Origin: an uncultured Candidatus Saccharibacteria bacterium
GTDB lineage: Bacteria; Patescibacteriota; Minisyncoccia; Phycocordibacterales; Phycocordibacteraceae
DNA length: 64,000 bases
Direction of reading: 5' to 3'
NCBI GenBank assembly: GCA_964634305.1
Contig: CAZWLE010000002.1
Location: forward strand, 921-64,920
Shown: positions 5,837 through 41,320 of the stretch, in pieces
Layout of the letters: each line of letters starts with the position of its first letter
Numbering within the stretch: the stretch's first letter is position 1
Made by a program: the position numbers and the translations under genes
The notes under the pieces: model-generated
What the model saw: only the letters and a program-made list of their open reading frames with translations
Database searches by the model: none
What the model was told of the DNA's origin: nothing

Positions 5837-6031
5837 ATGCAAAAGCGCACTGTTCTTGTCGTTATCGGTATCATCATCGCGCTCTCACCGTTTGCGGGCC
5901 TCCCGTATTCAGCACTCATGTGGCTCCTTCCTATACTCGGCATCATTACGGCCGTGCTCGCATATCCGTTCCGTGCGCGACCGCGGGCAGTAGAGTCAGA
6001 CGCTCCACATGAGACGACGCCCGGTATCTAG
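5837..6031 (+). CDS. Small two-TM membrane protein, 64 aa (tentative).
   Basis: Two hydrophobic helices (VLVVIGIIIALSPFAGL and LMWLLPILGIITAVLAY). It sits between rsmI and the next gene and overlaps that gene by 23 nt. Confidence 0.35.
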   Translation: MQKRTVLVVIGIIIALSPFAGLPYSALMWLLPILGIITAVLAYPFRARPRAVESDAPHETTPGI

Positions 6032-10538: not shown

Positions 10539-10541
10539 AGG

Positions 10542-11612: not shown

Positions 11613-11651
11613 GATAGGGGGATAGTAACAGAAACCCCCGCAGAGCGATAC

Positions 11652-12830: not shown

Positions 12831-12895
12831 ATGCGTCGAAGTCTATCCCGCGCTGCCTTTTAATAAAAGCGCCCTAATAAGGTAGGCTCTAGGGG

Positions 12896-14113: not shown

Positions 14114-14116
14114 ACG

Positions 14117-16254: not shown

Positions 16255-16272
16255 AGGTACTACGGCATCTAC

Positions 16273-19694: not shown

Positions 19695-19701
19695 CCGTTC
19701 T

Positions 19702-22668: not shown

Positions 22669-23959
22669 TACTATGCCCGCATCTATGTCAGGCACCGATA
22701 TTCAACGCGCAGCGATAGAACCCCTTTGCCGCACCGTATCTACGTGTCGCATGTGTCATTCGAAGGAATTGGCCCTCTACCTTGATTTAGGTACGCATCC
22801 GCCGTCTGATCAGTTCCGTACTAAGGAAGAGCTCGATATACCGGAAGTTCGCTACCCGCTTCGGGTCCTGCTTTGCACTACTTGCGGACTCTCACAGCTT
22901 TCCCATGTCGTTGACCCTCGCGTGCTGTATCAACATGACTATCCCTACGAATCATCGACCACCAAGACGGGTAAGAAGCATTGGGATGAGTTAGCAGCAG
23001 CAGTAAAAGCACGACTCTCATTGCCGGAAGGTTCTCTGGTGGTTGATTTCGGCAGTAACGTAGGTACATTACTCGATTCATTCAAATCAGTTGGTATGAA
23101 GGTCGCGGGTATCGACCCGGCGCCGAACATGGTCGAGAAAGCGAATGCAGCAGGCATTCCCACTATTTGTGACTTCTATGGCAGTGCTGCTGCAAAACAG
23201 GTACGTGCCACACATGGCAAGGCAGCGGTCATCGTTGGTACGAATGTGTTTGCTCACATAGATGACCTCGACGCCGTTATGGCAGCACATAAAGAACTAC
23301 TCGCAGACGATGGAGTGTTTATCTTTGAGTCGCCACACATGGGTCCGCTTGTAGAACACCTTGAGTACGACACGGTGTATCACGAGCATCTCTCCTATCT
23401 TTCCCTCGAACCGGTAACGCTCTTTGCGGAGCGTCATGGGTTGGAAGTATTTGCCGTTGAAGAGAGTCAGATACACGGAGGTTCATTCCGCGTATATATC
23501 GGTGCGAAGCATCAACACCCGATTGATGCTAGTGTTGCAGCGCTTATCGAGCGTGAACGAGCGCAAGGTCTTCATAACCTTGAGCAACTGCATGTATTTG
23601 CAGAGTGTGTACGACAAAATCGAGAAGCGCTTCGTCGCTTAGTCGAAGGTGTGCTCGCAGAAGGGAAGACTATTGCTGCGGTGTCAGCACCAGCGAAAGG
23701 CATGACCCTCCTTAATTACTGTGGATTTACTACTCGTGAGCTTCCGTTTGTTACTGAGAAAGCAGCCATAAAGATTGGGCGGTACACTCCTGGCGGCTAT
23801 ATTCCGATTGTTGCAGATGAGGAGCTACTAGTACGCAAACCAGATTACGCACTGTTGCTTGCATGGAATTTTGCAAAGGAAATCATGGAGAATAATGCGG
23901 CGTATCGCGAGGCGGGAGGCAAATTTATCATTCCTGTCCCCGCCCCAAAAATCGTGTAG
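22622..23959 (+). CDS. NDP-hexose C-methyltransferase (TylCIII-like), second copy. The true start is probably the ATG at 22673, just after the upstream stop.
   Basis: CRMCHSKELALYLDLGTHPPSDQF Zn-ribbon motif, a VVDFGSNVGTLL SAM motif, and a Methyltransf_14-like C-terminus. Confidence 0.7.
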   Translation: MEVLSASSFRTTEVRSTMPASMSGTDIQRAAIEPLCRTVSTCRMCHSKELALYLDLGTHPPSDQFRTKEELDIPEVRYPLRVLLCTTCGLSQLSHVVDPRVLYQHDYPYESSTTKTGKKHWDELAAAVKARLSLPEGSLVVDFGSNVGTLLDSFKSVGMKVAGIDPAPNMVEKANAAGIPTICDFYGSAAAKQVRATHGKAAVIVGTNVFAHIDDLDAVMAAHKELLADDGVFIFESPHMGPLVEHLEYDTVYHEHLSYLSLEPVTLFAERHGLEVFAVEESQIHGGSFRVYIGAKHQHPIDASVAALIERERAQGLHNLEQLHVFAECVRQNREALRRLVEGVLAEGKTIAAVSAPAKGMTLLNYCGFTTRELPFVTEKAAIKIGRYTPGGYIPIVADEELLVRKPDYALLLAWNFAKEIMENNAAYREAGGKFIIPVPAPKIV

Positions 23960-23961
23960 TA

Positions 23962-24357
23962 TTGAGCACAATGGATATCCAGCGCAAAGAGCCAAATCAC
24001 ACGGATGACCGAGGTGAGATACGTGACATCCTCGCGCACGAGGAATTCGATGCGGTTACCTATATTACGTATACGAAGGGTGCCATCCGTGCGAACCACT
24101 ACCACGAGAAAACAGTACAGTGGGACTACGTTATCTCTGGTTCTTTGGAATGCTATTCCCGCGATGGGTTCGATGCGCCAGTAGAAATGCATATCATTGG
24201 CCCTGGAGATTTGGTCAAACATCCGGTAGGTGAGCATCATGCTCTTCGTGCGCTTGAGGATTCAGTTACGCTCGCGCTTGCGAAAGGTCCGCGTCAGGGC
24301 GATGAGTATGAGAACGATGTAATTCGTCTTGAGGGCGACCAGAAGCTCGTTTCTTAA
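23962..24357 (+). CDS. WxcM/FdtA-like cupin (NDP-4-keto-6-deoxyhexose 3,4-ketoisomerase-like).
   Basis: 131 aa. DDRGEIRDIL...ANHYHEKTVQWDYVISGS is a cupin His-rich motif, and the size matches FdtA/QdtA. Confidence 0.5.
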   Translation: MSTMDIQRKEPNHTDDRGEIRDILAHEEFDAVTYITYTKGAIRANHYHEKTVQWDYVISGSLECYSRDGFDAPVEMHIIGPGDLVKHPVGEHHALRALEDSVTLALAKGPRQGDEYENDVIRLEGDQKLVS

Positions 24358-24362
24358 CGTAT

Positions 24363-25484
24363 ATGCACGTCCCTGTCGGAAAACCCCTCTTCGGTGACGT
24401 AGAGCGAGAATATGTTAATGATGCGCTCACTAAGACGGAAATCTCCGGCTTTTCGGGTGGATACACTACGAAGTTTGAGCAGGCATTCGCTGCGTTTTGC
24501 GGCACTAAAGAAGCGGTAACGGCATCAAGCGGTACCACGGCGCTTCATCTTGCGCTTGCCGGTCTTCGTATCGGTCCTGGCGATGAAGTCATTACACAGT
24601 CGTTTACCAACATGGCGACCTTTTTCGCCATTCTCTACCAAGGTGCTGTTCCGGTACCAGTCGATTCAGAACCAGATACGCTCAACATCGACCCTGCTCT
24701 TATTGAGGCGAAGATAACGTCACGCACAAAAGCGATTATGGTGGTCCATATATATGGTCACCCTGTCGACATGGGCCCGGTCATGGAGATAGCGCGTAAG
24801 CATAATCTGCTCGTCATTGAGGACGCAGCAGAAGCGCATGGCGCAGAATATAACGGTCAACGGGTCGGCAGCTTCGGAGACGCTGCGTGCTTTAGTTTTT
24901 ATGCCAACAAGATAATCACGACAGGGGAGGGTGGCATGGTGACCACGAATAATCCAGAACTTGCCGCACGTATGCGAAGTCTGAAGGGTCTTGCCTTTGG
25001 TAAGGAAAACAAGTTCATGCACGAAGATATTGGATACAACTACCGTATGACCAATCTCCAGGCAGCGTTTGGGGCAGCACAGATGACGCATGCCGAAGAC
25101 TTGGTAGCGCGTAAACGTGCTATCGCGGCGTACTACCTCACACACCTTCAAGGTCTTTCAGGCGTTCGTCTTCCTGTAGAGAAGCCCTATGCAAAGAATG
25201 TGTACTGGATGTTCAACGTAGTACTCGAAGGTGCCCTTGAAGGAAAGCGTGCTGACGTTATGCGTGAACTTCTCGCGCGCGGTGTGGAAACGCGAGAAGA
25301 TTTTCTTCCTGCAAACGACCAGGACATCTTCCAGGCTCGCGGGTTCACGAAGGCTGAAGACTGTCCCCATGCAAGCTACGCAGGGAAGAACGGATTCTAT
25401 CTCCCAAGTGGCACTGATATTAGTGAAGAGGAGCAAGCGCATGTTGTGACGATGATGAAAGAGGTCGTCGCTACACTGACGTAG
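24363..25484 (+). CDS. DegT/DnrJ/EryC1/StrS-family PLP-dependent sugar aminotransferase.
   Basis: SSGTTALHLALAGL, DAAEAHGA, and SFYANKIITTGEGGMV (PLP-lysine motif). Confidence 0.85.
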   Translation: MHVPVGKPLFGDVEREYVNDALTKTEISGFSGGYTTKFEQAFAAFCGTKEAVTASSGTTALHLALAGLRIGPGDEVITQSFTNMATFFAILYQGAVPVPVDSEPDTLNIDPALIEAKITSRTKAIMVVHIYGHPVDMGPVMEIARKHNLLVIEDAAEAHGAEYNGQRVGSFGDAACFSFYANKIITTGEGGMVTTNNPELAARMRSLKGLAFGKENKFMHEDIGYNYRMTNLQAAFGAAQMTHAEDLVARKRAIAAYYLTHLQGLSGVRLPVEKPYAKNVYWMFNVVLEGALEGKRADVMRELLARGVETREDFLPANDQDIFQARGFTKAEDCPHASYAGKNGFYLPSGTDISEEEQAHVVTMMKEVVATLT

Positions 25485-25485
25485 T

Positions 25486-27755
<2,270 letters not shown>

Positions 27756-27828
27756 CTTTCTTTTTCGCAGGAACGTGTTATTTTGTGAGTCCCTGACCTC
27801 ATGGTCGTAGTCGAAAAGGGAGGCGTCT

Positions 27829-28143
27829 ATGGCGCTTTTGCACACCGTCCTTGTGTCATTTTGGGATGATGTTACTCCCGACACCACGAGGGAATACATC
27901 TACAAGAAGTATCAGACGCTTGCCGAAAAATGCGGTGGCGCTGATGCAGGCATCCTGAAATGCCATGTCGGCTGGAACAAGGACCTTCGGAAGAAGGTCG
28001 GGAGAGAGTGGCATCTCTCAATAGTCATTTGGTTCCGTGATGACGATGCTCTCCAGGCATTCCGACGCCATCCAGAACATACGGAGCTCACCAACCTTCT
28101 TCGCACGTGCGGTGATTGGGTGGTGGCTGACATCGACATCTGA
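27829..28143 (+). CDS. Dabb-like stress-responsive alpha/beta-barrel protein.
   Basis: 104 aa; the LHTVLVSFWDD...AFRRHPEH pattern matches the Dabb family. Confidence 0.5.
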   Translation: MALLHTVLVSFWDDVTPDTTREYIYKKYQTLAEKCGGADAGILKCHVGWNKDLRKKVGREWHLSIVIWFRDDDALQAFRRHPEHTELTNLLRTCGDWVVADIDI

Positions 28144-28228
28144 TTGGTAGTCAGCAATACACGCCTCGGGACATAGTTCCTGGGGCGTTGCTGTTACCTG
28201 TATTCGCAAAGGGTATACTGCCCCTATC

Positions 28229-29308
28229 ATGAGGATTACCTACCTCTCTACTGCCCGTATTCCCGATGAATGGGGGCATGTCATACAGATACTGAAGATG
28301 TGTGAGGCGTTTGCGGACCTCGGTCATACGGTGGAATTAGTAGTGCCTATGCGCGCTGCTACACCAACCACTGACCCATACGAGTACGTCGGCGCAAAGC
28401 GGAATTTCCGTATCACAAAACTTCCATGTCTCGATTTCTCTGCGACCGGAGAGGGAAAGTTTTTCTATTGGCTCCGTACACTCTCGTTTCTCATAGTTGC
28501 GTGTCTCTATCTTTTCTTTCGTCGTAACGAACTTATATATACACGCGAGCCTGCTGCTTCGCTCTTTTTCCGTGACTTTGCCTTTGAAGCACATGCAGTG
28601 ACGCCCGGCCTTAGTGGAGCATTAAAAAACGCTCGCACCGTTATTGCGATTACCTCATTCATAAAAGAGGAACTCGTCGCGGCAGGAGTGCCTACAGAGC
28701 GTGTCTTCATCGCGCCTGACGCAGTTGATCTCGCACCGTTCTCTTCGACCGAAGGGAAAGCAGAAGCTCGAGCACGTCTTGGTCTGCCTGATGGAAAGCT
28801 TGCGCTCTACCTTGGGCGCGTCGACGCGTGGAAAGGGTATGACGCACTGTTTGGTGCCGCTGTGCTTCTCGAGGACGTGACCGTTGTGGTAATAGGCGCT
28901 GAAGAAAAAGACCTTCCGTCCTTGCGCGCTGCGCACCCACGCGTAGTGTTTGTGCCGTTCCGACCATATAAAGAAGTAGCGGACAACCAGGCTGCTGCTG
29001 ACGTATTGCTCCTTCCCAACACTGCAAAGAACTCGATGTCCGCTCGGTATACGTCGCCGCTAAAACTCTTTACCTACATGGCCTCTGGCGTACCAATCGT
29101 TGCGTCCGATTTGCCATCGATACGGGAAATTCTCGATGAGTCGACGGCGTATCTAGTGTCGCCTGATGATGCCAAGGCACTCGCGGTAGGTATACGTACT
29201 GCGCTCGCACATTCTGACGAAGCAAAAGCACGTGCCAAGGCTGCTCGAGAAAAGGTAGAAAACTACACGTGGCGCAGCCGTGCAGAGCGTATCCTTGCTT
29301 CGTTGTAA
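28229..29308 (+). CDS. Glycosyltransferase family 4 (GT-B).
   Basis: N-terminal Glyco_trans_4-like region, and a C-terminus with NTAKNSMSARYTSPLKLFTYMASGVPIVASD. Confidence 0.75.
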   Translation: MRITYLSTARIPDEWGHVIQILKMCEAFADLGHTVELVVPMRAATPTTDPYEYVGAKRNFRITKLPCLDFSATGEGKFFYWLRTLSFLIVACLYLFFRRNELIYTREPAASLFFRDFAFEAHAVTPGLSGALKNARTVIAITSFIKEELVAAGVPTERVFIAPDAVDLAPFSSTEGKAEARARLGLPDGKLALYLGRVDAWKGYDALFGAAVLLEDVTVVVIGAEEKDLPSLRAAHPRVVFVPFRPYKEVADNQAAADVLLLPNTAKNSMSARYTSPLKLFTYMASGVPIVASDLPSIREILDESTAYLVSPDDAKALAVGIRTALAHSDEAKARAKAAREKVENYTWRSRAERILASL

Positions 29309-29921
29309 TATGGCGCACGACACACAGACTGATTTTTTTAAAAAGCAGATAACGCGTATCTTCGCTGAGAAGAAGGTAATTATCGATATTGGCGGGGGAT
29401 TGCGTATCGACCAAGCGCGGAACAATCGGTACGAAGAAGGCTACACATGGATTCATCCCTATTTGGATACGGTTGACTACAAAGTGCTCGACAAAGTCTC
29501 CGATTTCAACCCAGACATTGTTGGCGACATCCACGCACTCCCGCTTCCTGATGAGAGCGTTGATGCGATTGTATGCATCGCCGTGCTCGAACATGTTGAG
29601 GAGCCACAGAAAGCCGTACGAGAAATGCATCGTGTGCTAAAGCCTGGTGGATACTGTTTTATCTTTGCACCGTTTCTCTACTACTATCACGCAGAGAAAG
29701 GCTACTACGGTGACTTCTATCGATTCACGGAGGACGGTATGTGGTACATGACCAAGGAGTTTTCTTCCGTCGAGATTGACCCTGTACGTGGTCCTATCAC
29801 CACACTCCTTAATCTCATCCCGTTCTTTTCAAAGCGTACGGGGTGGGCATCATTTCTTGATCGATTCGCGCGACCAGGCAGTAAGCAGGTGAGTGGCTGC
29901 AATGTGTTCTGCATAAAATAG
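29280..29921 (+). CDS. Class-I SAM-dependent methyltransferase.
   Basis: IDIGGGLR motif I, and the post-I/II region DAIVCIAVLEHVEEPQKAVREMHRVLKPGGYCFI. Confidence 0.7.
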   Translation: MQSVSLLRCNMAHDTQTDFFKKQITRIFAEKKVIIDIGGGLRIDQARNNRYEEGYTWIHPYLDTVDYKVLDKVSDFNPDIVGDIHALPLPDESVDAIVCIAVLEHVEEPQKAVREMHRVLKPGGYCFIFAPFLYYYHAEKGYYGDFYRFTEDGMWYMTKEFSSVEIDPVRGPITTLLNLIPFFSKRTGWASFLDRFARPGSKQVSGCNVFCIK

Positions 29922-29923
29922 TC

Positions 29924-30616
29924 ATGACCCATTTTGACCATCTCCAAAGTTTAGTGCCAGGGCTTTCAAGTAAACGCATCCTTGATTTGGGAGCAGGACG
30001 TGGAGGCTTTCTCATAGGACTCGCCAAGCAGGGTATTAGCGCTAAGGGTGTCGAGTATAGCGACACGTATATAAAAGAGGCAAAGGAACGAGCTGAGAAC
30101 GAGGGAGTTGTCATTGATGTGGTGCAGGGTGCCGCAGAAGCATTACCTTTTACTGAGGGATCATTCGATTTTATTAACGCCTGTGAGGTGATTGAGCACG
30201 TGCAGAGTCCTGAACTTATGCTCAGAGAGATACATCGCGTACTTGTATCAGGCGGTGCAGCGTACGTATCAGTCCCAAATCGATTTGGCATGAAAGACCA
30301 ACATTTCCATCTATATGGTGTTAACTGGGTACCACGCGCGTGGTCAGATACATACATTAGCCTCTTTGGAACACATAAGAAGTATGAGGACGCATCCGCG
30401 GGCCATCAGCGACTTCGTAGCATGCATTACTACACATTTACGACTATATGTGCACTTGTGGAATCAGCCGGATTGCAGGCACAAGACATACGGCTTCGTC
30501 GGATACGTTCGGAGTACAGCGGGCTAAAGCGTAGTTTCGCGTTGATACTATACCCGTTTCTTCGCTCCTTCTATTTTGATTCTTTTCACCTTCTTCTAAT
30601 AAAACCACAGAAGTAA
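29924..30616 (+). CDS. Class-I SAM-dependent methyltransferase.
   Basis: ILDLGAGRGGFL motif I and FDFINACEVIEHVQSPELMLREIHRVLVSGGAAYVSVP. Confidence 0.75.
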   Translation: MTHFDHLQSLVPGLSSKRILDLGAGRGGFLIGLAKQGISAKGVEYSDTYIKEAKERAENEGVVIDVVQGAAEALPFTEGSFDFINACEVIEHVQSPELMLREIHRVLVSGGAAYVSVPNRFGMKDQHFHLYGVNWVPRAWSDTYISLFGTHKKYEDASAGHQRLRSMHYYTFTTICALVESAGLQAQDIRLRRIRSEYSGLKRSFALILYPFLRSFYFDSFHLLLIKPQK

Positions 30617-30661: not shown

Positions 30662-31930
30662 TTATGAATTTACCGGATGTTTATAGAAATGTACGAGACC
30701 AGAAAGAAGTATTAAATTAAACAAACGACCGAGAATGCGTGCAACAATCGCACCCATGAGCCCATATCCTATGATTCCAACCACCAGAACTATCATCTGA
30801 AAGATTGGACTCAATATATTGAATATATATAGTTCACGTTTTGCGGCCTGGGCTTCAAGCAGAGTATATGGAATTGCATTTGAGATTAATAACAGTGAAA
30901 TGGCAAACACCTGTGAGTACAGCACAGCTTCTGGATATGCAGGGAAGAGAATACGGAAGATAAACGGTGCAAGTACGATGTAAACGAGTGCAACTAGTGC
31001 AAGCATGAGAGTGAATAGCCCCATTCGTTTCCAGAAATTACCAAGTACTTCATGCATTGGTCGATTTGAGAACTTAGGAAAGGCCAATGTGGCTACACTG
31101 TTTACTGTAGATTTTGCCTGTTCTGGCAACGCAGTAGCAAATGTGTAAACAGCCAAAGGAACCGCTCCAAGAAAGTGAAAAACGAGAATCTTGTCTGCTT
31201 GTTGTGAAATGGTGCTAATGACATTCATGGCACTGAAGTGTGCTGAAAGAGAAAAGAGCTCAGGACTTGTGTCGCCTTGTGGTTTGTAGATGCGATAGGT
31301 GTGTAAACACAGCAATAGACCAATAACGATGTTGCCGCCTAAATAAGCAAGTAAGAACATGACAGGGTCACTGGTTACTGTCATGAGTCCAAGAATCAGG
31401 GCACCAGTTACAGCATTCAGTACAATGCCGTAAAGCGCCATGCGTTTAAAATCCTTCTTACCTTCCAAAAACGACCCATAAAGCAGAGATACCTGCATGA
31501 GTGGTCCAAGGACCGCTATGGTGAGCATGCCACCTGCGAGCAGCAGATTATCGTTGAGTGCGTAATAGCCGGACATCGCAAGCGCTATCACAAGGAGTGG
31601 AGTACTGCCCATGAGACTAAGCGTGAATGCTTTACGGTACGTACCATCGAATCCACGGGCTATTGCACGTGAGAGAGCGGTCGGCAATCCAGTTAGTGAA
31701 AATGCGGTTAGTACCCAGAAGACAGAGAGCAAAAAGCGGTATGTACCATACGCATCTTTGGGAACTAAGTGAGAGAACGCGACCGAGAGTCCGAGCGCTA
31801 TGAGTCCGAGCGCAATCTGCCCTAAAGTGAGCCAAAAACCCCCTTTCACGAGATAACGCATATCAGTTTTTGTTACGCGCTCAGCTATCCCAAGACCCCG
31901 TTGGAGTAGTCGCTCAGATGAAGGGTCCAT
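30662..31930 (-). CDS. Wzx-type oligosaccharide flippase (MOP/polysaccharide biosynthesis protein). The start is placed at the internal Met (MDPSSER...); the longer 32149 start would overlap the divergent gene by 180 nt.
   Basis: ~12 predicted TM helices. The polar N-terminal extension of the longer ORF is unlikely to be real. Confidence 0.7.
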   Translation of the reverse strand: MDPSSERLLQRGLGIAERVTKTDMRYLVKGGFWLTLGQIALGLIALGLSVAFSHLVPKDAYGTYRFLLSVFWVLTAFSLTGLPTALSRAIARGFDGTYRKAFTLSLMGSTPLLVIALAMSGYYALNDNLLLAGGMLTIAVLGPLMQVSLLYGSFLEGKKDFKRMALYGIVLNAVTGALILGLMTVTSDPVMFLLAYLGGNIVIGLLLCLHTYRIYKPQGDTSPELFSLSAHFSAMNVISTISQQADKILVFHFLGAVPLAVYTFATALPEQAKSTVNSVATLAFPKFSNRPMHEVLGNFWKRMGLFTLMLALVALVYIVLAPFIFRILFPAYPEAVLYSQVFAISLLLISNAIPYTLLEAQAAKRELYIFNILSPIFQMIVLVVGIIGYGLMGAIVARILGRLFNLILLSGLVHFYKHPVNS

Positions 31931-31970
31931 TGGAGCAGTATACCGAGGGTAAGTGGTATAGTCTCCCCAT

Positions 31971-34121
31971 ATGGCATTAAAAAGCGTGGCGCTCTGGACC
32001 GTCCTTGGTGCGTTGTTTATTATCCCGTTCCTCCCTTTATACGTAGCCAGTGACCTATTTTTTCCGTTTATTTCCTCCAAGGGCTTTGCATTTCGCATCA
32101 TTATTGAGCTTGCCGCAGGCGCGTACCTCCTTCTTGCCATTGCCGACAAGCGCTATCGTCCGCGCTGGTCATGGACCCTCGTTATCTATGGAGCGTTTGT
32201 AGCATGGATGTTCATTGCGAATCTCTTTGCTGAGAATGCACACAAGGCATTCTGGTCTAATTACGAGCGCATGGACGGGTGGGTCACGCTCGTCCACGTC
32301 TTCGTTTTCTTTATTATTGCCGGTGCAGTCTTGTCTGCTGACAAACTCTGGAAGCGGTGGTGGCTGACGGTACTTGGTGCCTCTGCGCTCGTATCCGTTC
32401 ATGGTGTCTGGCAGCTCTTAGGATACGCAGAGATTCACCAAGGTGGTGCGCGTCTTGATGCGAACTTCGGTAACGCCATTTACCTGGCGGTGTATCTGAT
32501 GTTCACCATCCTGATTGCGACATGGCAGGCAGTCGTGTCGAAGGGGTGGTTACGATGGTGTCTCATTGCTCTTGCTGCGCTCCAAGTCGTTCTGCTCTTT
32601 GCTACCGCAACTCGTGGTGTGGTACTGGCGCTGTTTGGTGCCTCAATTTTGATGGGCCTTGCATGGGTAGCGACGTCAGCTGCAGGGAAGGGAAAGGTGA
32701 TTGCGGGCGCTGCGGTAGGGCTGTTGCTCGTTCTTGGTGCAGGGTTCTATCTGGTGCGTGATAGTTCCTTTATTCAAAATGAACCCGCGCTCGCACGTCT
32801 TGCAACGGTCTTTAATTCCAACGAACTCACGGTACGTGCAACGCTCTGGAGCATGGCCTTTGAGGGGGCAGCGGAGCGTCCTATTACCGGTTGGGGTCAG
32901 GAAGGTTACAACTTTGTATTCAACACGTATTACAAGCCAACGCTCTACGGTCAGGAGCCGTGGTTTGATCGTGCGCACAATGAATACCTTGATTGGCTTG
33001 TTGCGGGCGGATACCCAGCATTGCTTCTCTTCGTAGCGTTATTGCTCTCGGTGCTATATGCCTTCTTCAAAAAGAAGGATGACCCGGTAGCACGTGTCTT
33101 TTTGGGTGGGGTATTGGTTGCATATGCTCTACAGGCCGTCACTGCTTTTGATAACCTGTTGTCATATATTCTTGCTGCTGCGCTCTTTGCAATGGCGCAC
33201 GATGCGAGTGCGCGCCCCATTCCCGCGCTTGAGCGTGCAGAGGAATCACGTGGAGATACGCTTGCAACCATAGGTGCGCCCGTGGTGCTTGTAGTGACGT
33301 TTGCAGTGGTGTGGTTTGTAAATGTGCCGAACATCAGTGCAGGCACCGACCTTATTCGCGCAGCCGGTGCAAAAGACGCATCTGCAGCTCTTGCTGCGTA
33401 TGAGTCTGCACTGGCGCATGAATCGTTTGCTCGCCAGGAGATACGAGAACAATTACTTAGCTTTGCAGGCAGCATTGCACAGAACGGGAGTATACCGGTC
33501 GAGGTGCGCCAGGCGGCTGTGAAGCTTGCGTTCGAACAGGCAGAGGAAGGGATTGCTGAAGTACCAAACGACGCTCGCGGCCACCTTATGTATGCGCAAG
33601 CACTCCGTCTTGCTGGAAACGGTGAAGGCGCCCTACGTGAAATAGATGCTGCACTTGCACTTTCTCCAAAAAAACAAACGACACTCATGCAGCGCGGAGC
33701 GGCAAAATGGCAGATTAATGATATGGCAGGTGCCGTAGCCGATTTTGAGGCAGCATATAACCTCGATCGTCGTAACAAGAATGCTGCGGGCTATCTTGCA
33801 GCAGGGCGTATTCTTCAAGGCGACGTTGCAGGTGGTAAGGCGCTACTCCAAGAAGTGTATGGCTCAACCGTTGTGGACCTTGATGTGCTGCGTGCTGCCT
33901 ACTTTGAGACGAAGCGCTATGCTGATCTTGTTGAGGTAGTGAAACTTTCGTCGCAGAACGAGCCTGGAAATGTACAGAAGCGTCTCCTTCTGGTACAGGC
34001 GTATGCACTCGCTGGACGCGCTGCTGAAGCGCGCACAGAAGCGGACGCGATTCGTGCAGCGCACCCAGAAGCTGCAGCGACGGTTACCACACTCTTGGTA
34101 CAGCTCGGCCTTTCGAAATGA
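31971..34121 (+). CDS. O-antigen ligase (Wzy_C/PglL-like) family membrane protein with a C-terminal TPR-repeat periplasmic domain.
   Basis: ~11 TM helices in the first ~430 aa, with a large loop containing WSMAFEGAAERPITGWGQEGYNFVF...RAHNEYLDWL (Wzy_C-like). The C-terminal ~280 aa form TPR-like helical repeats (AYNLDRRNKNAAGYLAAGRI...). Confidence 0.75.
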   Translation: MALKSVALWTVLGALFIIPFLPLYVASDLFFPFISSKGFAFRIIIELAAGAYLLLAIADKRYRPRWSWTLVIYGAFVAWMFIANLFAENAHKAFWSNYERMDGWVTLVHVFVFFIIAGAVLSADKLWKRWWLTVLGASALVSVHGVWQLLGYAEIHQGGARLDANFGNAIYLAVYLMFTILIATWQAVVSKGWLRWCLIALAALQVVLLFATATRGVVLALFGASILMGLAWVATSAAGKGKVIAGAAVGLLLVLGAGFYLVRDSSFIQNEPALARLATVFNSNELTVRATLWSMAFEGAAERPITGWGQEGYNFVFNTYYKPTLYGQEPWFDRAHNEYLDWLVAGGYPALLLFVALLLSVLYAFFKKKDDPVARVFLGGVLVAYALQAVTAFDNLLSYILAAALFAMAHDASARPIPALERAEESRGDTLATIGAPVVLVVTFAVVWFVNVPNISAGTDLIRAAGAKDASAALAAYESALAHESFARQEIREQLLSFAGSIAQNGSIPVEVRQAAVKLAFEQAEEGIAEVPNDARGHLMYAQALRLAGNGEGALREIDAALALSPKKQTTLMQRGAAKWQINDMAGAVADFEAAYNLDRRNKNAAGYLAAGRILQGDVAGGKALLQEVYGSTVVDLDVLRAAYFETKRYADLVEVVKLSSQNEPGNVQKRLLLVQAYALAGRAAEARTEADAIRAAHPEAAATVTTLLVQLGLSK

Positions 34122-35134
34122 TGCTCAAGGAACGTGTGCCTCTCGCTACACTGACGACCTTGAAGGTTGGCGGTGAAGCACGCTACGTCGCGTTTGTAGA
34201 AAGTGAACAGGACGTACATGAGGCGGTGACGTTTGCGCGTGAGCACGACGTTTCGTTCTACGTACTTGGTGAAGGGTCCAACGTGCTCCCAAGTGATGCG
34301 GGATATGACGGGGTAGTAATTGTCATGCGTATCGCTGGTATGGAAACGAGTGAAGAGAAAGGTGTTGTTCGTATACAAGGTGGCGCCGGCGTCTCATGGG
34401 ATGCGGTAGTGCGCGAAGCAGCGGCGCAAAACGCATGGGGTATTGAAAACCTTGCCGGCATTCCTGGCACGCTTGGTGCCGCACCAGTACAAAATATTGG
34501 TGCGTACGGTGCAGAGCTTGCACAGGTTCTTGAAGAAGTGCGAGTGTATGACACAACGTCTGGAGAAGTGCGTACGTTATCTGCTGCAGACTGTACGCTT
34601 GGCTACCGTGATAGTCGATTCAAGCACGATGCATCACTCATCATTATTGGCGTTACGCTCGTCCTTCGTACTGATGCAAGCGCACGACTCGACTACAGTG
34701 ACTTAGCGCGTGCCAAGGAAGCAGGCGAAGACCTGTCGACGCCGGCAAAGATAGGGGACGTGGTGCGCGCGATTCGTGCCAAGAAATTCCCTGACCTTTC
34801 TGAGTACGGGACGGCAGGGTCATTCTTCAAAAACCCGGTCATGAGTGAAGAAGTGTATTCGGCTCTTTCAGAGAAGTATGGCGAAGCACCACGATTTCCG
34901 AACGTGAATGGTGTAAAAGTTCCGCTTGCGTTCATCCTTGATAAAGCACTCGGACTCCGTGGGTTCCGTCTTGGTCCTGCATCTCTCTTTGGCGCACAGC
35001 CACTCGTGCTTGTGGCTGAACGTGGTGCTACCGCACAGGATGTTGATGCGCTTGCCCGCGAAGTAGAATCACGCGTGTATGACGCAACAGGCATTACGAT
35101 TGAACGCGAAGTGCGCACCATGCCGCAGAAATAA
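34118..35134 (+). CDS. murB: UDP-N-acetylenolpyruvoylglucosamine reductase.
   Basis: LATLTTLKVGGEARYVAFVESEQDV, FYVLGEGSNVL (FAD-binding), and a C-terminal MurB_C-like region. Confidence 0.85.
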   Translation: MMLKERVPLATLTTLKVGGEARYVAFVESEQDVHEAVTFAREHDVSFYVLGEGSNVLPSDAGYDGVVIVMRIAGMETSEEKGVVRIQGGAGVSWDAVVREAAAQNAWGIENLAGIPGTLGAAPVQNIGAYGAELAQVLEEVRVYDTTSGEVRTLSAADCTLGYRDSRFKHDASLIIIGVTLVLRTDASARLDYSDLARAKEAGEDLSTPAKIGDVVRAIRAKKFPDLSEYGTAGSFFKNPVMSEEVYSALSEKYGEAPRFPNVNGVKVPLAFILDKALGLRGFRLGPASLFGAQPLVLVAERGATAQDVDALAREVESRVYDATGITIEREVRTMPQK

Positions 35135-35386: not shown

Positions 35387-35397
35387 TCCGCTTTAAC

Positions 35398-35433
35398 GAA
35401 AACCCCCGCACTCGCGGGGGTTTTCGTTTTCTT
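35398..35433 (+). terminator. Rho-independent terminator or attenuator hairpin, 16 nt upstream of the secA start.
   Basis: AAAACCCCCGC actc GCGGGGG TTTTCGTTTTCTT: a 7-bp G/C stem followed by a U-run. Confidence 0.7.
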
Positions 35434-35448
35434 GTATAGTGCCCTGAT

Positions 35449-37968
35449 ATGGCGAGCTTTCTTGGCCGCATCTTCGCCCAGAACGAATCCGCGGCCTTTA
35501 TAAAGGGTGCGGCCCCTATCGTATCCCGTGCTGCAGCTCTTGAGGCAGAGCTTGAAGTGCTTTCCCGCGATGAGCTTGCGGCTCGTCTCCTCTATATAAA
35601 GGAACGTGTCGGTGGGGTACCTACGGCTGAGGCAGATATTGCAGAGGTGTTCGCCCTGACGCGTGAGGCAGCACGTCGTACCCTCAAGCAGCGTCATTTT
35701 GATGTGCAGCTTATTGGTGGGTTTGCGCTCTCCTCGGGCAAAATCGCTGAGATGCGTACCGGTGAAGGAAAGACGTTGGTGGCAACCTCTGCTGCCGTCC
35801 TTCGCTCACTTTCAGGAAAGGGGGTGCACGTTGTGACGGTGAACGATTATCTTGCTCGTCGCGACGCCGCATGGATGGGGCAGGTATATGACTACCTTGG
35901 CCTTTCGCTTGGTGTCATCACAAGCCAGGGTGCATATCGCTACGACCCGTCGCACGTAGAAGAAGGAGAGGATGAAAAACGTGATGAAGAAGGGTCCTTT
36001 AAGGTGTTCTACGATTACCTTCGTCCCGTTAGTAAGAAAGAGGCGTATGACGCTGATATCACGTATGCGACGAACAATGAGCTCGGCTTTGATTACCTTC
36101 GTGACAACACCGCGTACGAGACCTCACAGATTTCGCAGCGCGGTCATCACTTTGCGATTATCGATGAAATAGACTCGATTCTTATCGACGAGGCACGCAC
36201 GCCGCTTATCATTTCTGGCCCCGCAGGTGATGCGGAAGGACTCTACGAACGATTCTCTGGCATTGTACGTTCCTTTGAGGAAGGTCCTGATTACTCTGTC
36301 GATGAGAAACAGCGTGCTGTGCAGATTACTGAAGACGGTATACGTAAAGCAGAAACAGCCCTGGGTATTGATAATCTCTACACCGAAGGCGGGATGCGCT
36401 ACGCACATCACCTTGAGACGGCCGTGCGCGCGAAGGCGCTCTTTAAGAAAGATAAGGAGTACGTCGTTAAAGACGGTGAAATCATCATCGTTGATGAATT
36501 CACAGGTCGCCTCCAGCCAGGACGTCGCTGGTCAGAAGGGTTGCATCAGGCAGTGGAAGCAAAGGAAGGCGTACCGGTTCGCAAAGAGACCCGCACCTAT
36601 GCGAGCGTGACGTTCCAGAACTACTTCCGTATGTACGAAGGTCTTGCGGGCATGACCGGTACAGGTGCCTCTTCTGAGGAAGAGTTTTATACGGTGTACA
36701 AGCTTGAGGTGGTCGTAGTGCCAACCAACCGTGAAGTAAAACGTATTGACCGTGATGACCTTATCTTCCAGACCGTACGGGGTAAGTACGAAGCCCTCAC
36801 GGCACAGGTAAAAGCACTCCACGAGAAGGGACAGCCGGTACTTATTGGTACGGTCGCGATTGAAGATAACGAAGTAGTGAGTGACGCGCTCCGTAAGGCG
36901 GGCGTACCGCACGAAGTACTGAACGCAAAGAACCACGAGCGCGAAGGAGAAATTATTGCGCAAGCAGGACGAAAGGGTGGGGTAACGGTTGCAACCAACC
37001 TTGCTGGTCGTGGTGTCGACATTAAGCTCGGTGGCGCCACTGCGTCCTCGGAAGAACGAGACGAGGTGGTGTCGCTTGGCGGTCTCTATGTCATTGGTAC
37101 CGAGCGTCACGAGGCACGTCGTATCGATAACCAGCTACGTGGTCGTTCTGGTCGTCAGGGTGACCCCGGCGAGACAAGATTCTATGTCTCTCTTGAAGAC
37201 AAGCTCATGCGTGTCTTCGCTTCCGATATGGTCAAGAACGTTATGGGTACGTTCAAGATTCCTGAGAATGAACCGATTGAGAGCGGGATGATAACGCGCT
37301 CCCTTGAGACGGCACAGAAGCGTATCGAGGGCTTTAACTTCGACTCTCGCAAGCAGGTCTTGGCCTACGACGACGTACTGAACACCCAGCGCCTCACAAT
37401 TTACGCACGTCGCCGCACTGCGCTCCAGGGCACGGCTGATGAAGTAGAAGCAACTATTCGCGCGATAGTGCAGGGCGATGAGGCTGCAGAGAAAGCAATA
37501 GAGGAGAAGCGCGCCCTCTTTGGTGATTCGTTCCCACACGTACTGCGCCGCTTGCTTCTTCAGGTCGTCGATAGTTTCTGGCTTGAGCACCTGGAAACCA
37601 TGGATTATCTACGTCGCTCCGTATCCCTTCGTGCCTACGGTCAGCGCGACCCACTTATTGAATACCGAAAGGAAGGTCTTGCGCGCTTCCACCAGCTTGA
37701 AGCGTCTATTGATACCGCTATTCGCGAAGCGCTCCCTCGCATACGTCCTGCTGATGATGCAGCGGTAAAAGCGCAAGAAGAGAAGACGCGTAAAGCGCTC
37801 CTTGCCGCTTCTTCTGGAAATGGAGAGTCGACCGCACAAGAACCGGTAAAGAAGGCAGATGCACCAGGACGTAACGATACTGTTACTATTCGCAGCGGCG
37901 ATAAGACGATGACTCTCAAGTACAAGAAGGCAGAGCCATATATTGCTGAAGGGTGGGAGCTCGTGTAG
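35449..37968 (+). CDS. secA: Preprotein translocase ATPase SecA.
   Basis: 839 aa. Contains ALSSGKIAEMRTGEGKTLVAT (Walker A), DEIDSILIDEARTPLIISG (DEAD-like), and LAGRGVDIKLGG. Confidence 0.95.
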   Translation: MASFLGRIFAQNESAAFIKGAAPIVSRAAALEAELEVLSRDELAARLLYIKERVGGVPTAEADIAEVFALTREAARRTLKQRHFDVQLIGGFALSSGKIAEMRTGEGKTLVATSAAVLRSLSGKGVHVVTVNDYLARRDAAWMGQVYDYLGLSLGVITSQGAYRYDPSHVEEGEDEKRDEEGSFKVFYDYLRPVSKKEAYDADITYATNNELGFDYLRDNTAYETSQISQRGHHFAIIDEIDSILIDEARTPLIISGPAGDAEGLYERFSGIVRSFEEGPDYSVDEKQRAVQITEDGIRKAETALGIDNLYTEGGMRYAHHLETAVRAKALFKKDKEYVVKDGEIIIVDEFTGRLQPGRRWSEGLHQAVEAKEGVPVRKETRTYASVTFQNYFRMYEGLAGMTGTGASSEEEFYTVYKLEVVVVPTNREVKRIDRDDLIFQTVRGKYEALTAQVKALHEKGQPVLIGTVAIEDNEVVSDALRKAGVPHEVLNAKNHEREGEIIAQAGRKGGVTVATNLAGRGVDIKLGGATASSEERDEVVSLGGLYVIGTERHEARRIDNQLRGRSGRQGDPGETRFYVSLEDKLMRVFASDMVKNVMGTFKIPENEPIESGMITRSLETAQKRIEGFNFDSRKQVLAYDDVLNTQRLTIYARRRTALQGTADEVEATIRAIVQGDEAAEKAIEEKRALFGDSFPHVLRRLLLQVVDSFWLEHLETMDYLRRSVSLRAYGQRDPLIEYRKEGLARFHQLEASIDTAIREALPRIRPADDAAVKAQEEKTRKALLAASSGNGESTAQEPVKKADAPGRNDTVTIRSGDKTMTLKYKKAEPYIAEGWELV

Positions 37969-38011
37969 AGCGCGTATCGCGCACACGGGAAGCGTGGTAG
38001 GGTGATTTTAT

Positions 38012-38992
38012 ATGGCGTTTGTAGACGAGATACGTATTCACGCACAGGCCGGCCACGGTGGTCCGGGCGTTGTGCGTTGGCTCCATATCCGTGGCAAGGA
38101 TAAGGGTGGCCCATCGGGAGGCGACGGCGGTCGTGGTGGTGACATTGTGCTCGAAGGAGTCCGTGACCTCGCCGTGCTCGCAAGCTATCGCTTCACAAAA
38201 AAAGTGCGCGCAGAAAATGGTAAACCAGGAGGCAGCAACGATAAGCATGGTGCCGACGGTGTTCCAACGGTGTTGAAGGTACCTGTAGGTACGGTCGCGC
38301 GCGTCGTGACGACTCGTGAGGAATTTGAAATCCTTGAGGAAGGACAGCGTATCGTCATCTTTAAGGGTGGTCCTGGTGGATACGGGAACGCCCACTTTAA
38401 AAGCTCCACAAATCAGAATCCCGACTCTGCAAAGGAGGGTAAAAAGGGACAGGTTGGGGATATCGAAATCACCCTAAAACTCATTGCTGACGCTGGGTTT
38501 ATAGGGTTCCCAAATGCCGGGAAGTCGTCTCTTTTGAATGCGCTTACCCGCGCTGATTCGAAGGTGGGCGCGTACCCCTTCACCACCCTCGACCCTCACC
38601 TCGGGGACTTCTATGGCCACCTTCTTGCTGACATTCCGGGTCTTATTGAGGGTGCCTCGTCAGGCCGAGGTCTTGGTTCTAAGTTCCTTCGTCACGTAGA
38701 ACGTACAGGTTTGCTTGTACATCTTGTCTCGGCTGAACAAGAAGACGTCGCCGCATCCTATAGGGCCATACGAGAGGAACTTTCTGCCTTTGGTCGCGGT
38801 CTCGCAGAGAAAGCAGAGCTCGTCGTGCTCTCAAAGTCCGACCTTGTGACTCCGGAAGAGCTCGAAGAACGCCGAACGGCGCTCCAAGCTGCGGTAGGGG
38901 AGCGGGAGGTAATCACTCTTTCGGTCATCGACGATGACGCCCTAAAGGCCTTTTCGGACCGACTTGCTCGCTTGCTCGAGACTAAGTCCTAG
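38012..38992 (+). CDS. obg: GTPase Obg/CgtA.
   Basis: N-terminal Gly-rich Obg fold (GGPGVVRW...GGDGGRGGDIVL), and G-domain motifs GFPNAGKSSLLNAL and DIPGLIEGAS. Confidence 0.9.
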   Translation: MAFVDEIRIHAQAGHGGPGVVRWLHIRGKDKGGPSGGDGGRGGDIVLEGVRDLAVLASYRFTKKVRAENGKPGGSNDKHGADGVPTVLKVPVGTVARVVTTREEFEILEEGQRIVIFKGGPGGYGNAHFKSSTNQNPDSAKEGKKGQVGDIEITLKLIADAGFIGFPNAGKSSLLNALTRADSKVGAYPFTTLDPHLGDFYGHLLADIPGLIEGASSGRGLGSKFLRHVERTGLLVHLVSAEQEDVAASYRAIREELSAFGRGLAEKAELVVLSKSDLVTPEELEERRTALQAAVGEREVITLSVIDDDALKAFSDRLARLLETKS

Positions 38993-38998
38993 GGCAGG

Positions 38999-40405
38999 AT
39001 GAGGGCAATGAGCCCCTCCTATCGCCCGACCATAGGACTTGAGATACACGCGGAATTGAAGACGCAGACGAAGATGTTCTGCGCCTCAAAAAACGACCCT
39101 GACGAGGAGCGTCCGAACACCAACGTATGTCCGGTGTGTCTTGCGCACCCTGGTACACTTCCGGTCGCAAACAAAGAAGCGGTTCATCATGTGCTTCGGG
39201 TCGGTACCGCACTTGGCGCAACACTTGCTGACTACACAGAGTTTGACCGTAAAAGTTATTTCTACCCGGATATTCCAAAGGGGTATCAGATAAGTCAGTA
39301 TGAGCACCCGCTTGTTGCGGGCGGTAAGCTCAACGGCGTCGCGATTACGCGGGTACACCTTGAAGAAGACACGGCACGCTCATCACACGCAAAGGATGCG
39401 TCACTCGTTGATTTCAACCGTGCTGGTGTACCGCTTATGGAGTTGGTGACTGAACCGGTTATTCATGATGCAAAGACAGCGGGGGAGTTTGCACGCGAGC
39501 TACAGTTGCTCCTTCGCTCGCTTGGGGTATCCGACGCAAATCTTGAAAAAGGAGAGATGCGCATCGAAGCGAATATTTCTGTCTCAAAAACGGAAGAGTA
39601 TGGAACTAAGGTCGAGGTCAAAAATCTCAACTCCTTCCGTTCAGTTGAACGTGCGATTGAATATGAAATTAGCCGACAGAGCAAATTGATTGAATCGGGG
39701 GGTGCGGTCCAGCAGGAGACCCGCGGCTGGAACGAGGAGAAGCAGGAAACCTTCCATCAGCGGTTCAAAGAAGGCAGTGCAGACTACCGGTACTTCCCAG
39801 AACCTGATTTGCCTAAGCTCGTCATTTCGGAGATTCCAGAATTTGCGCACGATGTGCTGCGTGCCTCAATGCCAGAGCTTCCTTGGGAAAAGCGTGAGCG
39901 ACTCATTGCAGAAGGTATCAACGTTGAAGCAGCAAATATTCTTGTGAGCGATGCTGACTACGGCGCTCTCTACGACGAAGAAATTGCTGGTATCACCGAT
40001 ACTAAAGCCCGCATCGCCGCCGTTAATATACTCATGAGTGATGTACGCGGTAAGAATCCTGACGGTGACATGCTTACAAGACTGCGTGGCGCGTTTACGC
40101 CGGTGATGACGCAGTTTGTAGAAGGTAAGCTCTCATCGACGAATGCAAAGGCTGCTATCACGGACGTTATGGCAGGAAAGAGCGTAGAGGAGGCTCTCGC
40201 CGGCAAAGTACAGGTAAGTGATGAAGGAGCGCTTCTAGAGGCCGTCAGAAAGGTGATTGAGGAGCAGCCTGCAGCGGTAGCGGAGTATCAGGGCGGCAAA
40301 GAGAATGCACTCCAGTTCCTCGTAGGACAGGGTATGAAGGCTACCAAGGGAGCAGGCAATCCAGGTGTTCTGAGGGAGCTTTTCGCGAAGGAACTCGGGA
40401 AATAA
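38999..40405 (+). CDS. gatB: Asp-tRNA(Asn)/Glu-tRNA(Gln) amidotransferase subunit B.
   Basis: IGLEIHAELKTQTKMFC...CPVCLAHPGTLPV, then GatB/YqeY C-terminal domain-like sequence. Confidence 0.9.
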   Translation: MRAMSPSYRPTIGLEIHAELKTQTKMFCASKNDPDEERPNTNVCPVCLAHPGTLPVANKEAVHHVLRVGTALGATLADYTEFDRKSYFYPDIPKGYQISQYEHPLVAGGKLNGVAITRVHLEEDTARSSHAKDASLVDFNRAGVPLMELVTEPVIHDAKTAGEFARELQLLLRSLGVSDANLEKGEMRIEANISVSKTEEYGTKVEVKNLNSFRSVERAIEYEISRQSKLIESGGAVQQETRGWNEEKQETFHQRFKEGSADYRYFPEPDLPKLVISEIPEFAHDVLRASMPELPWEKRERLIAEGINVEAANILVSDADYGALYDEEIAGITDTKARIAAVNILMSDVRGKNPDGDMLTRLRGAFTPVMTQFVEGKLSSTNAKAAITDVMAGKSVEEALAGKVQVSDEGALLEAVRKVIEEQPAAVAEYQGGKENALQFLVGQGMKATKGAGNPGVLRELFAKELGK

Positions 40406-40489
40406 GCCACTAATTCCAAGACATCTCGTCTTGCACAGATTGGTGAAAAGTCTCTTCTAAAAGAGACGAGATATCCTATACTTCAAGGA

Positions 40490-41320
40490 ATGGATGAGCT
40501 TACTATCGATGGGAAAATCTATGTATCGTCTAAACGGGCCGCTGCCATAACCGGGTATGCGAAGGACTACATAGGGCAGCTGTGCCGTGAGGGGCGTGTT
40601 GAAGCGAAATTAGTGGGACGCAGCTGGTACGTATACGAGCCGTCTCTCAAGAAGCATCGCTTTAATGATGAGGAAGAGCAGCCTGAGGTGCCAAAAGCAG
40701 AGACAGCGTGGGGAAGTCTTCCAACAGAAGAGCCAATACCAGCTCCTTCTTCTCCTGAACTATCCGAAAACACTAGTATTCAGGCCGTTTGGGATGCACC
40801 AACCTACGCAGCAGAGGAAGTAGAACCGCTGCCTGAACTTGAGCCAGTCGTTGAAGAACCAGCTCAAGAACCACTTACTGATATGCAGTCAGCGTGGCAG
40901 GAATGGTTTGCAAACCGCCCTGAAGAGGCGCCAGTAACCGAATTAGTGGCAGAAGAGGTTGTAGAAGCTCCTAGAGCTCCTGAAGAGTCAAAAGAAGAAC
41001 CTAAAGAGGCCCCTGTAGCAGAAGCAGTACCGTTGAAGGTCATTGTGAGCGATATACAGCCTGTACGGGAGGAACGTGTAGTACCTGCAGCCCCTGCTGT
41101 GCGAGTAGCGCCAGTAGCATCACCTGTACGTATCCTGCAGAGAAAGACGGTCAAAAAGGGAAATAATCGCCTTATGGAAGCAGCGCTTATCTTGGTTATG
41201 GTGGTGAGTGCATCAATAGCTCTCATTTCAACAGGCGCTATAGAGATGCTTCATGTTGGTGGTACCTCAAGCGTGCCTCCTATCCAATATCTTGAAGGTT
41301 CGATACTGATAGAAAGATAG
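40490..41320 (+). CDS. Membrane protein with an N-terminal excisionase/MerR-like HTH (HTH_17-like), an acidic Pro/Glu-rich linker and a C-proximal TM anchor. Its N-terminus is paralogous to that of the giant protein.
   Basis: SSKRAAAITGYAKDYIGQLCREGRVEAKLVGRSWYVYEPSL aligns with ISTRDASALSGYHSDYLARLCREEKIVGSRIGRSWVLDRASL of the 41864 gene. The TM is AALILVMVVSASIALISTGAI (nt ~41180–41245). Confidence 0.7.
   Translation: MDELTIDGKIYVSSKRAAAITGYAKDYIGQLCREGRVEAKLVGRSWYVYEPSLKKHRFNDEEEQPEVPKAETAWGSLPTEEPIPAPSSPELSENTSIQAVWDAPTYAAEEVEPLPELEPVVEEPAQEPLTDMQSAWQEWFANRPEEAPVTELVAEEVVEAPRAPEESKEEPKEAPVAEAVPLKVIVSDIQPVREERVVPAAPAVRVAPVASPVRILQRKTVKKGNNRLMEAALILVMVVSASIALISTGAIEMLHVGGTSSVPPIQYLEGSILIER

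Follow-up and report, generated by a model that had tools for sequence, protein, structure and literature searches.

The 64,000-nt stretch of DNA analyzed here, called the window in the following (contig CAZWLE010000002.1 of assembly GCA_964634305.1, positions 921 to 64,920 of the forward strand), is deposited under the name of an uncultured Candidatus Saccharibacteria bacterium. It carries a gene encoding a polytopic membrane protein with a Wzy_C domain and a C-terminal tetratricopeptide repeat (TPR) domain. The protein, referred to as the ligase, is best explained as an enzyme of the WaaL/PglL (Wzy_C) superfamily, which transfers glycans en bloc on the exterior side of the cytoplasmic membrane in a monoderm member of the Candidate Phyla Radiation (CPR). 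A role as protein O-oligosaccharyltransferase (O-OTase) acting on surface proteins, like WsfB or PglL, is proposed tentatively, with chances that we judge to lie a little below even. The ligase gene and its parts, as seen in the open reading frame (ORF), in Pfam, and in an AlphaFold2 (AF2) model, are as follows.

31971..34121, plus strand: Wzy_C-TPR ligase gene, 716 aa (ORF, Pfam, AF2 model)
31971..33368, plus strand: membrane core, aa 1-466, with 13 transmembrane (TM) helices in the AF2 model
32571..33035, plus strand: Pfam Wzy_C region with the putative catalytic Arg/Arg/His, aa 201-355
33369..34118, plus strand: TPR domain, aa 467-716, predicted to be extracytoplasmic (AF2 model, family profile, Lys/Arg bias of the loops)

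The first-pass annotation, made from the letters of the sequence, had described this ORF as a Wzy_C protein with a long C-terminal TPR domain, and Pfam, the family profile, and the AF2 model all bear this out. Wzy_C (PF04932) was matched at aa 201-355 with an E-value of 9e-19 and 68 bits (cutoff 31.7); the score was 73 bits when the fragment was searched alone. At the level of domains, the identity of the protein (Wzy_C plus TPR) is already annotated.

The full-length AF2 model, built on the family alignment, reached a predicted local distance difference test (pLDDT) score of 94 and a predicted TM-score (pTM) of 0.90, and a second model of the TM part of the ligase reached a pLDDT of 90. Helices 1 to 12 form a WaaL-like core, to which a long TM13 (aa 428-466) is added, and a large outer loop (aa 262-337) follows TM9. 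In a Foldseek search of the PDB with the TM-only model, WaaL was the top membrane match and the only convincing membrane relative (7tpg_B, E 1.8e-6, TM-score 0.50/0.57, 443 columns); the SEDS polymerases FtsW ranked next by fold (E about 1e-2). The family profile A1 also matched 7tpg_B by sequence (E 3e-6), and a more diverse TM-only profile (A3) gave no match among the PDB sequences. WaaL (7TPG of Cupriavidus metallidurans; Escherichia coli) shares with the ligase the 12-helix core, the large outer loop after TM9, and the Arg/Arg/His residues, and it is the only solved relative, with a sequence identity of about 17%. It differs in its size of about 400-420 aa, in the lack of a 13th helix and of an outer domain, in the location of its gene in the lipopolysaccharide (LPS) core locus, and in its acceptor, lipid A-core.

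Conservation was scored over 73 family sequences of 29-61% identity. R215, R276, R289, and H336 are kept in at least 97% of them, and the same holds for the outer-loop motif KAFWSNxERMDGW (92-104), for GWGQE (307-311) and FDN (393-395), and for E329 and WFDRxH (331-336). An hhalign alignment to the single WaaL sequence of E. coli K-12, which at E 0.07 is weak and is used for residue correspondence only, paired R215 with R215, R288 with R289, and H338 with H336 (WaaL residue first). In WaaL, this Arg/Arg/His trio (R215, R288, and H338 in E. coli) is essential, and it is conserved in PglL (PMC3643930). As judged from the alignments, the predicted catalytic trio is intact in the ligase as R215, R289, and H336. 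Profile, fold, and Arg/Arg/His residues all place the protein in the Wzy_C/O-antigen-ligase superfamily.

The C-terminal domain is modeled as 14 helices in seven hairpins (aa 470-711). Direct Pfam TPR matches in this part of the protein were weaker than the Wzy_C match, and a profile of 71 homologues matched consensus-TPR structures (E 7e-39) and the TPR domain of OGT (E 2e-12). The TPR-domain residues E490, E493, R536, S565, K568, and Q569 are kept in at least 97% of the 73 family sequences. Across the same 73 members, the density of Lys plus Arg is 0.19 in the inner loops versus 0.06 in the outer loops, and the loop preceding helix 13 is positively charged. Together with the odd number of helices (13), this bias indicates an N-terminus inside and a large loop and TPR domain outside; in the model, the TPR domain is therefore extracytoplasmic, delivered to the outside by the 13th helix. 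When the TPR domain was removed from the model, the confidence in loops 91-100 and 321-340 dropped from 91/85/75 to 72/53/70, which cautiously suggests that the TPR domain packs onto the catalytic loops and contacts the active site. TPR domains mediate interactions between proteins. The proposal that this one serves as a periplasmic domain for substrate recognition is upheld as far as its placement outside is concerned (helix count and Lys/Arg bias); the acceptor itself was identified by none of the tests.

The ligase belongs to a very large, uncharacterised family in Paceibacteria (CPR). There are 931 close matches, the top 120 of which are all 705-740 aa long; the close homologues come from metagenome-assembled genomes of Paceibacterota, Minisyncoccia, and Parcubacteria. 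A library clustered at 50% identity contained 1753 representatives at E ≤ 1e-30, and the best 150 of these are all full-length (about 700-820 aa). We found no paper in the literature that describes a Wzy_C-TPR ligase family in CPR. The best name among the homologues in the databases is "O-antigen ligase family protein", which cannot be literally right for organisms without LPS. Those few CPR for which descriptions exist are monoderms (PMC8871954). Several contigs with a gene order typical of Paceibacteria bear the titles "Bacillota bacterium", "Legionellaceae bacterium", or "Candidatus Saccharibacteria"; these labels are probably wrong (suspect cases are locus L084, JBLNCF010000015.1, and many "uncultured Candidatus Saccharibacteria" records among L003-L082).

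Upstream, the ligase gene is bordered by two features.

30662..31930, minus strand: Wzx-type (Polysacc_synt/MOP) flippase, divergent, 422 aa after start correction (Pfam E 2.5e-18)
about 8820..30616, no single strand assigned: glycan biosynthesis cluster (Pfam)

A divergently adjacent Wzx flippase had been noted before and was found again with the Polysacc_synt match (Pfam E 2.5e-18). The mechanically listed flippase ORF (30662..32149) runs into the ligase gene; its homologues are 417-436 aa long, so that the true start is the Met at 31930, which leaves an intergenic gap of 40 bp to the ligase. The glycan cluster encodes seven GT4 glycosyltransferases and one GT47-like enzyme, as well as C- and S-adenosylmethionine-dependent methyltransferases, a DegT aminotransferase, dehydratases/epimerases, and an acyltransferase (all by Pfam). 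Presumably, this cluster supplies the donor glycan of the ligase. The gene content of the 64-kb window was scanned in ORFs of at least 150 aa, a scope that applies to all scans of the window for genes mentioned below. No lipid A, Kdo, heptosyltransferase, or core genes were present among these ORFs, so the earlier remark that lipid A/core machinery is not in view holds for them. They likewise contained no second Wzy_C protein. A WaaL in the strict sense was considered as a candidate and rejected as unlikely, because LPS genes are missing from the scanned ORFs, the host belongs to a group described as monoderm, and the protein, with its 716 aa and 13 helices, exceeds WaaL by one helix and by a TPR domain of 250 aa on the outside.

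Downstream, the following features were assigned.

34118..35134, plus strand: murB (NCBIfam equivalog, 300 bits)
35395..35428, plus strand: terminator-like hairpin in the murB/secA gap (15-bp stem with nine G-C pairs, T tail; a consensus match only)
35449..41320, plus strand: conserved block of secA, obg, gatB, and a gene for a 276-aa membrane protein (BLAST to related loci)
41864..56983, plus strand: giant protein of 5039 aa, candidate acceptor (composition, domain and TM features)

The start of murB overlaps the stop of the ligase gene by 4 bp, and both genes are probably co-transcribed. The genes secA, obg, and gatB were identified by BLAST to loci whose genes bear precomputed Pfam matches to SecA, Obg, and GatB. 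In the giant protein, an HTH_17-like cytoplasmic domain at the N-terminus precedes a TM helix (aa 137-155) and a Ser/Thr/Gly-rich exterior. A Ser/Thr content above 30% had been given for the downstream surface proteins, which is slightly high: Ser plus Thr amount to 27.6% in the whole giant protein, and 28-36% are reached only in its central 250-aa windows; the two proteins after it contain 22%. The ligase does lie, as described before, between the glycan cluster and the genes of the giant proteins; this position holds for the order, but five genes (murB, secA, obg, gatB, and that of the 276-aa protein) intervene. A tRNA search and an Rfam search of the window gave no match.

To compare the gene order, 80 related genomic loci were fetched, and their ORFs were called and compared by BLAST with the window proteins, a neighbor annotation that could not have revealed lipid A, Kdo, or heptosyltransferase genes in them. 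Across these loci, the ligase is 29-63% identical and its position is fixed. The order is near-invariant: variable glycan genes, often with a divergent flippase, are followed by the ligase, murB, secA, obg, gatB, the 276-aa protein, and the giant protein, with murB and obg at these positions in the closer clade only. Where the sequence leaves enough room, secA is one of the first two genes of 200 aa or more after the ligase in 54 of 59 loci and further downstream in two more (past murB and a 213-aa ORF in one, past two inserted genes in the other). Co-occurrence of the ligase with giant-protein genes had been named as a check, and a homologue of the giant protein's N-terminus indeed lies downstream of the ligase in 34 of the 45 loci whose sequence extends far enough; the median Ser plus Thr content of these homologues is 30%, versus a background of 11%. 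The two flanks differ strongly in their conservation. Upstream, 49% of the genes in the near clade and 21% in the far clades have any homologue in the window, compared with 88% and 77%, respectively, downstream. Fixed order and upstream variability show the ligase as a vertically inherited core gene, which borders a hypervariable glycan island on one side and a conserved block on the other.

This conservation bears on the question of whether the protein might instead be a Wzy-type polymerase of flipped repeat units, with the TPR domain serving as a scaffold for chain length or export. Wzy_C is present in some polymerases, Wzx is adjacent, the glycan cluster of the window contains no other multi-TM polymerase candidate, and the runner-up fold matches are the SEDS proteins FtsW mentioned above. 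Wzy proteins, however, are highly divergent and specific for their repeat unit (PMC12004945), whereas the ligase stays fixed and recognizable while the glycan genes beside it are replaced. In addition, the scan of the window gave no match to a Wzz/GNVR co-polymerase (PCP), and in many related loci the polymerase could be one of the other multi-TM proteins that lack an assignment. Since the ligase is conserved beside variable glycan genes and Wzz is absent from the scanned ORFs, a polymerase function is quite unlikely. Conservation of the ligase next to varying glycan genes fits a constant acceptor combined with a relaxed donor specificity.

The coupling to murB raises another possibility, namely that the enzyme uses peptidoglycan or an acceptor derived from lipid II and that its TPR domain docks on proteins of cell wall synthesis. 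The translational coupling is seen in the window and the closer clade, murD, murI, and murC are located at the start of the window, and no LCP ligase was present among the scanned ORFs. In monoderms, attachment to peptidoglycan is performed by LCP enzymes (PMC5727136), and in the larger, more distant clade murB is not found at this position. MurB is moreover a cytoplasmic protein acting many steps earlier. To our knowledge, no Wzy_C enzyme ligates a glycan to peptidoglycan, and we regard this function as very improbable.

With regard to the en-bloc transferase proposed above, the following mechanism can be envisaged. Undecaprenyl phosphate would carry an oligosaccharide assembled by the variable upstream cluster, and the Wzx encoded next to the ligase would flip this lipid-linked product outward. 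The undecaprenyl pyrophosphate (Und-PP)-linked glycan would be held by the invariant R215 and R289 and probably by R276, and H336 in the large outer loop may mediate the transfer of the glycan to a hydroxyl acceptor. Brought out by the 13th helix and probably situated over the catalytic loops, the seven-repeat TPR domain would recruit this acceptor. The likeliest acceptor would be a Ser/Thr-rich, Sec-exported surface protein, for example, the giant protein encoded downstream. The enzyme would then be a general protein O-OTase, a counterpart of WsfB in Paenibacillus alvei and of PglL in Neisseria.

Among characterized systems, the S-layer O-OTases WsfB (P. alvei) and WsaB with WsaA (Geobacillus stearothermophilus) resemble the ligase in several respects: the hosts are monoderm, Wzy_C is combined with a C-terminal or adjacent TPR, the gene neighbors a glycan cluster, and the glycan is attached to a large surface protein (PMC2943079). 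In the published descriptions, WsfB and PglL combine Wzy_C with a TPR motif at the C-terminus, and WsaB has a TPR protein, WsaA, encoded next to it (PMC2943079). The ligase is likened to them by the described architecture and context. Export in the Geobacillus WsaB system proceeds via a Wzm/Wzt ABC transporter (PMC2943079), whereas the ligase has an adjacent Wzx flippase. The idea of an O-OTase role for the Wzy_C-TPR architecture in monoderms dates from at least 2010.

PglL of Neisseria and PglS share the Wzy_C core, the Arg/Arg/His trio, and a C-terminal periplasmic extension (PMC3643930, PMC12645811). A TPR motif has been reported in this extension (PMC2943079); the ligase has a full superhelix of seven repeats. 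PglL/PglS use a Wzx-flipped Und-PP donor with relaxed glycan specificity, and PglL genes are often located apart from those of their substrates (PMC12645811). They differ from the ligase in the presence of PglL_A and in their proteobacterial hosts. For the pilin O-OTases TfpO/PilO, the gene adjoins that of the pilin substrate, whereas the window of the ligase is devoid of a prepilin motif. The pilin O-OTase TfpW of Pseudomonas aeruginosa is likewise a polytopic transferase for protein glycosylation with a periplasmic, that is non-cytoplasmic, C-terminal TPR domain (bioRxiv 10.1101/2020.04.19.049825). It is, however, an ArnT-like enzyme with a DDX motif and with unrelated chemistry and catalytic fold; the resemblance is one of design, not of homology. 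The same design, again not homologous, is realized in the eukaryotic TMTC enzymes, polytopic membrane transferases with a non-cytoplasmic, C-terminal TPR domain that function in protein glycosylation.

Several results weigh against an O-OTase function of the ligase. None of the curated NCBIfam models for ligases or OTases matched it (NCBIfam and single-sequence searches yielded TPR noise only), and PglL_A (PF15864) was not matched in Pfam even at E-values up to 10, nor was it among the precomputed domains of 120 homologues. Wzy_C_2 (PF11846) reached only 11.8 bits (E 0.23, cutoff 28.5) over 53 profile positions. Because PglL_A is absent and Wzy_C_2 is not significant, the ligase lies outside the PglL family; both domains are also missing from TfpO and TfpM (PMC12645811). 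No priming phosphoglycosyltransferase was detected among the scanned ORFs, and we therefore infer the Und-PP donor from the Wzx flippase only. The terminator-like hairpin, located in the 315-bp gap between murB and secA, parts the ligase-murB unit from secA. Synteny of the ligase with the giant protein passes through secA, obg, and gatB, housekeeping genes to which no functional tie is obvious, and their association may thus be mere inherited gene order and not a functional linkage. Where secA is not downstream (3 of 59 loci) or a gene is inserted (two loci), the neighbors do not point to a consistent type of substrate: LCAT/PGAP1-like hydrolases, an fn3/Gly-rich protein, an unassigned Ser/Thr-rich anchored protein, and a topoisomerase region were found. 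Pili had been named in the first-pass annotation as an alternative target of the glycan; the type IV prepilin leader motif (G[FYMW][TS][LIVM][IVLPM]E) is absent from all frames of the window. Finally, TPR domains also scaffold polysaccharide export machines, according to a reference quoted within PMC2943079, and O-OTases are indistinguishable from WaaL, which has a lipid acceptor, by their Wzy_C/WaaL-like domains alone (PMC12645811).

The last point leads to the strongest competing explanation, a TacL-like ligase that joins the flipped Und-PP-glycan to a membrane glycolipid anchor, giving a lipoglycan or a product of the lipoteichoic acid type, with the TPR domain as a scaffold. TacL of Streptococcus pneumoniae is a Wzy_C protein of a monoderm and transfers an Und-PP-linked polymer, flipped by a Wzx-family protein, to a glycolipid (PMC5727136), which shows that the acceptor of a Wzy_C ligase in a monoderm can be a glycolipid. 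The nearest solved fold belongs to WaaL, a lipid-acceptor enzyme, Wzy_C by itself does not tell the two activities apart (PMC12645811), secreted and putatively lipid-active LCAT/PGAP1-like hydrolases follow the ligase directly in two related loci, and a faint Glyphos_transf match occurs in one related glycan cluster. TacL (397 aa) and WaaL, at about 400 aa, lack an extracytoplasmic domain such as the TPR (PMC5727136), whereas the ligase family always has the extra helix and the 250-aa TPR domain. Furthermore, neither teichoic acid nor glycolipid-anchor genes were seen among the scanned ORFs of the window. A glycolipid ligase is therefore considered unlikely, although it deserves serious attention. 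The candidate protein O-OTase proposed in the first-pass annotation can be retained as far as a non-LPS, non-polymerase ligase with a protein-binding domain predicted to lie outside is concerned; the acceptor and the PglL motifs are the parts that found no counterpart.

CPR make up a large share of bacterial diversity. They lead a life attached to other cells, with surfaces that have hardly been investigated, and the ligase family is among the large conserved families of their envelope. New in this work are the size and conservation of the ligase family in CPR, its fixed location bordering a variable glycan island, the outward TPR domain predicted to be placed by a 13th helix, the apparently intact catalytic trio, and the giant Ser/Thr-rich protein conserved in the downstream block. 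If the ligase is a protein O-OTase, it would represent the first protein glycosylation system defined in the CPR, would account for the fixed position of a variable glycan island beside a conserved gene block, and would provide a new TPR-guided O-OTase scaffold for glyco-engineering. A glycolipid-ligase activity would instead hint at a so far overlooked lipoglycan in organisms believed to obtain their lipids by scavenging. A more far-reaching proposal, which we put forward as a speculation with rather low chances, is that Paceibacteria carry a general system of protein O-glycosylation, vertically inherited and near-universal, in which the TPR-ligase, encoded beside the hypervariable glycan island, coats giant Ser/Thr-rich surface proteins anchored in the membrane with strain-specific glycans at the Sec exit. 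In that case, the position near secA would reflect a translocation-coupled glycosylation comparable to eukaryotic OST/PMT-Sec61, and the coat of glycans would control how these episymbionts attach to their hosts or escape phages.

A number of further observations concern the surroundings of the ligase. Directly upstream of it, many distant-clade loci encode multi-TM proteins (536-626 aa) that have no Pfam match and could be unrecognised polymerases or GT-C enzymes (multi-TM examples are L005:8363-9970, L049:6208-9960, L055:8079-9788, L073:4318-6120, L061:2225-3874, and L074:6413-9932). The upstream multi-TM proteins of other loci comprise additional flippases, PMT_2 GT-C enzymes, and proteins without assignment; PMT_2-type GT-C enzymes are found nearby in L010, L027, and L005:6493-7785. 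A secreted LCAT/PGAP1-like alpha/beta-hydrolase protein of approximately 960 aa lies directly between ligase and secA in L052:12275-15208 and L074:12285-15152. An apparent fusion of a secreted protein with the ligase (1492 aa, L072:4962-9440) was discarded as a scaffold-gap artefact, in which a run of N had been translated as X.

Before the glycan cluster, a 361-aa ORF without assignment (6009-7094) lies between the murD-murI-murC genes and the cluster, and the region 7110-8777 contains a VirD4/TrwB-like type IV coupling protein (E 5e-8). Within the cluster, a gene of the CofD/YvcK family (16273-17238, E 8e-73) is located among the glycosyltransferases. It is followed by a UDP-glucose/GDP-mannose dehydrogenase-like gene at 17235-18678, which is apparently split into an ORF of 288 aa with the N-terminal and central domains and an overlapping ORF of 197 aa without Pfam match. 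Since L014 and L015 contain the same pair of ORFs, the gene may truly be split.

The 276-aa protein (40490-41320) and the giant protein both start with an HTH_17-like (excisionase-type) domain (E 0.046 and 3e-4, respectively), which is followed by a single TM helix. Both would thus be membrane-anchored with a cytoplasmic, DNA-binding-like head, and the pair is kept in most related Paceibacteria loci. A weak C1q-like match (E 9e-4) was detected at aa 4359-4436 of the giant protein (about 54938-55171), and its tail (aa 5001-5039, 56864-56980) consists of 56% glycine.

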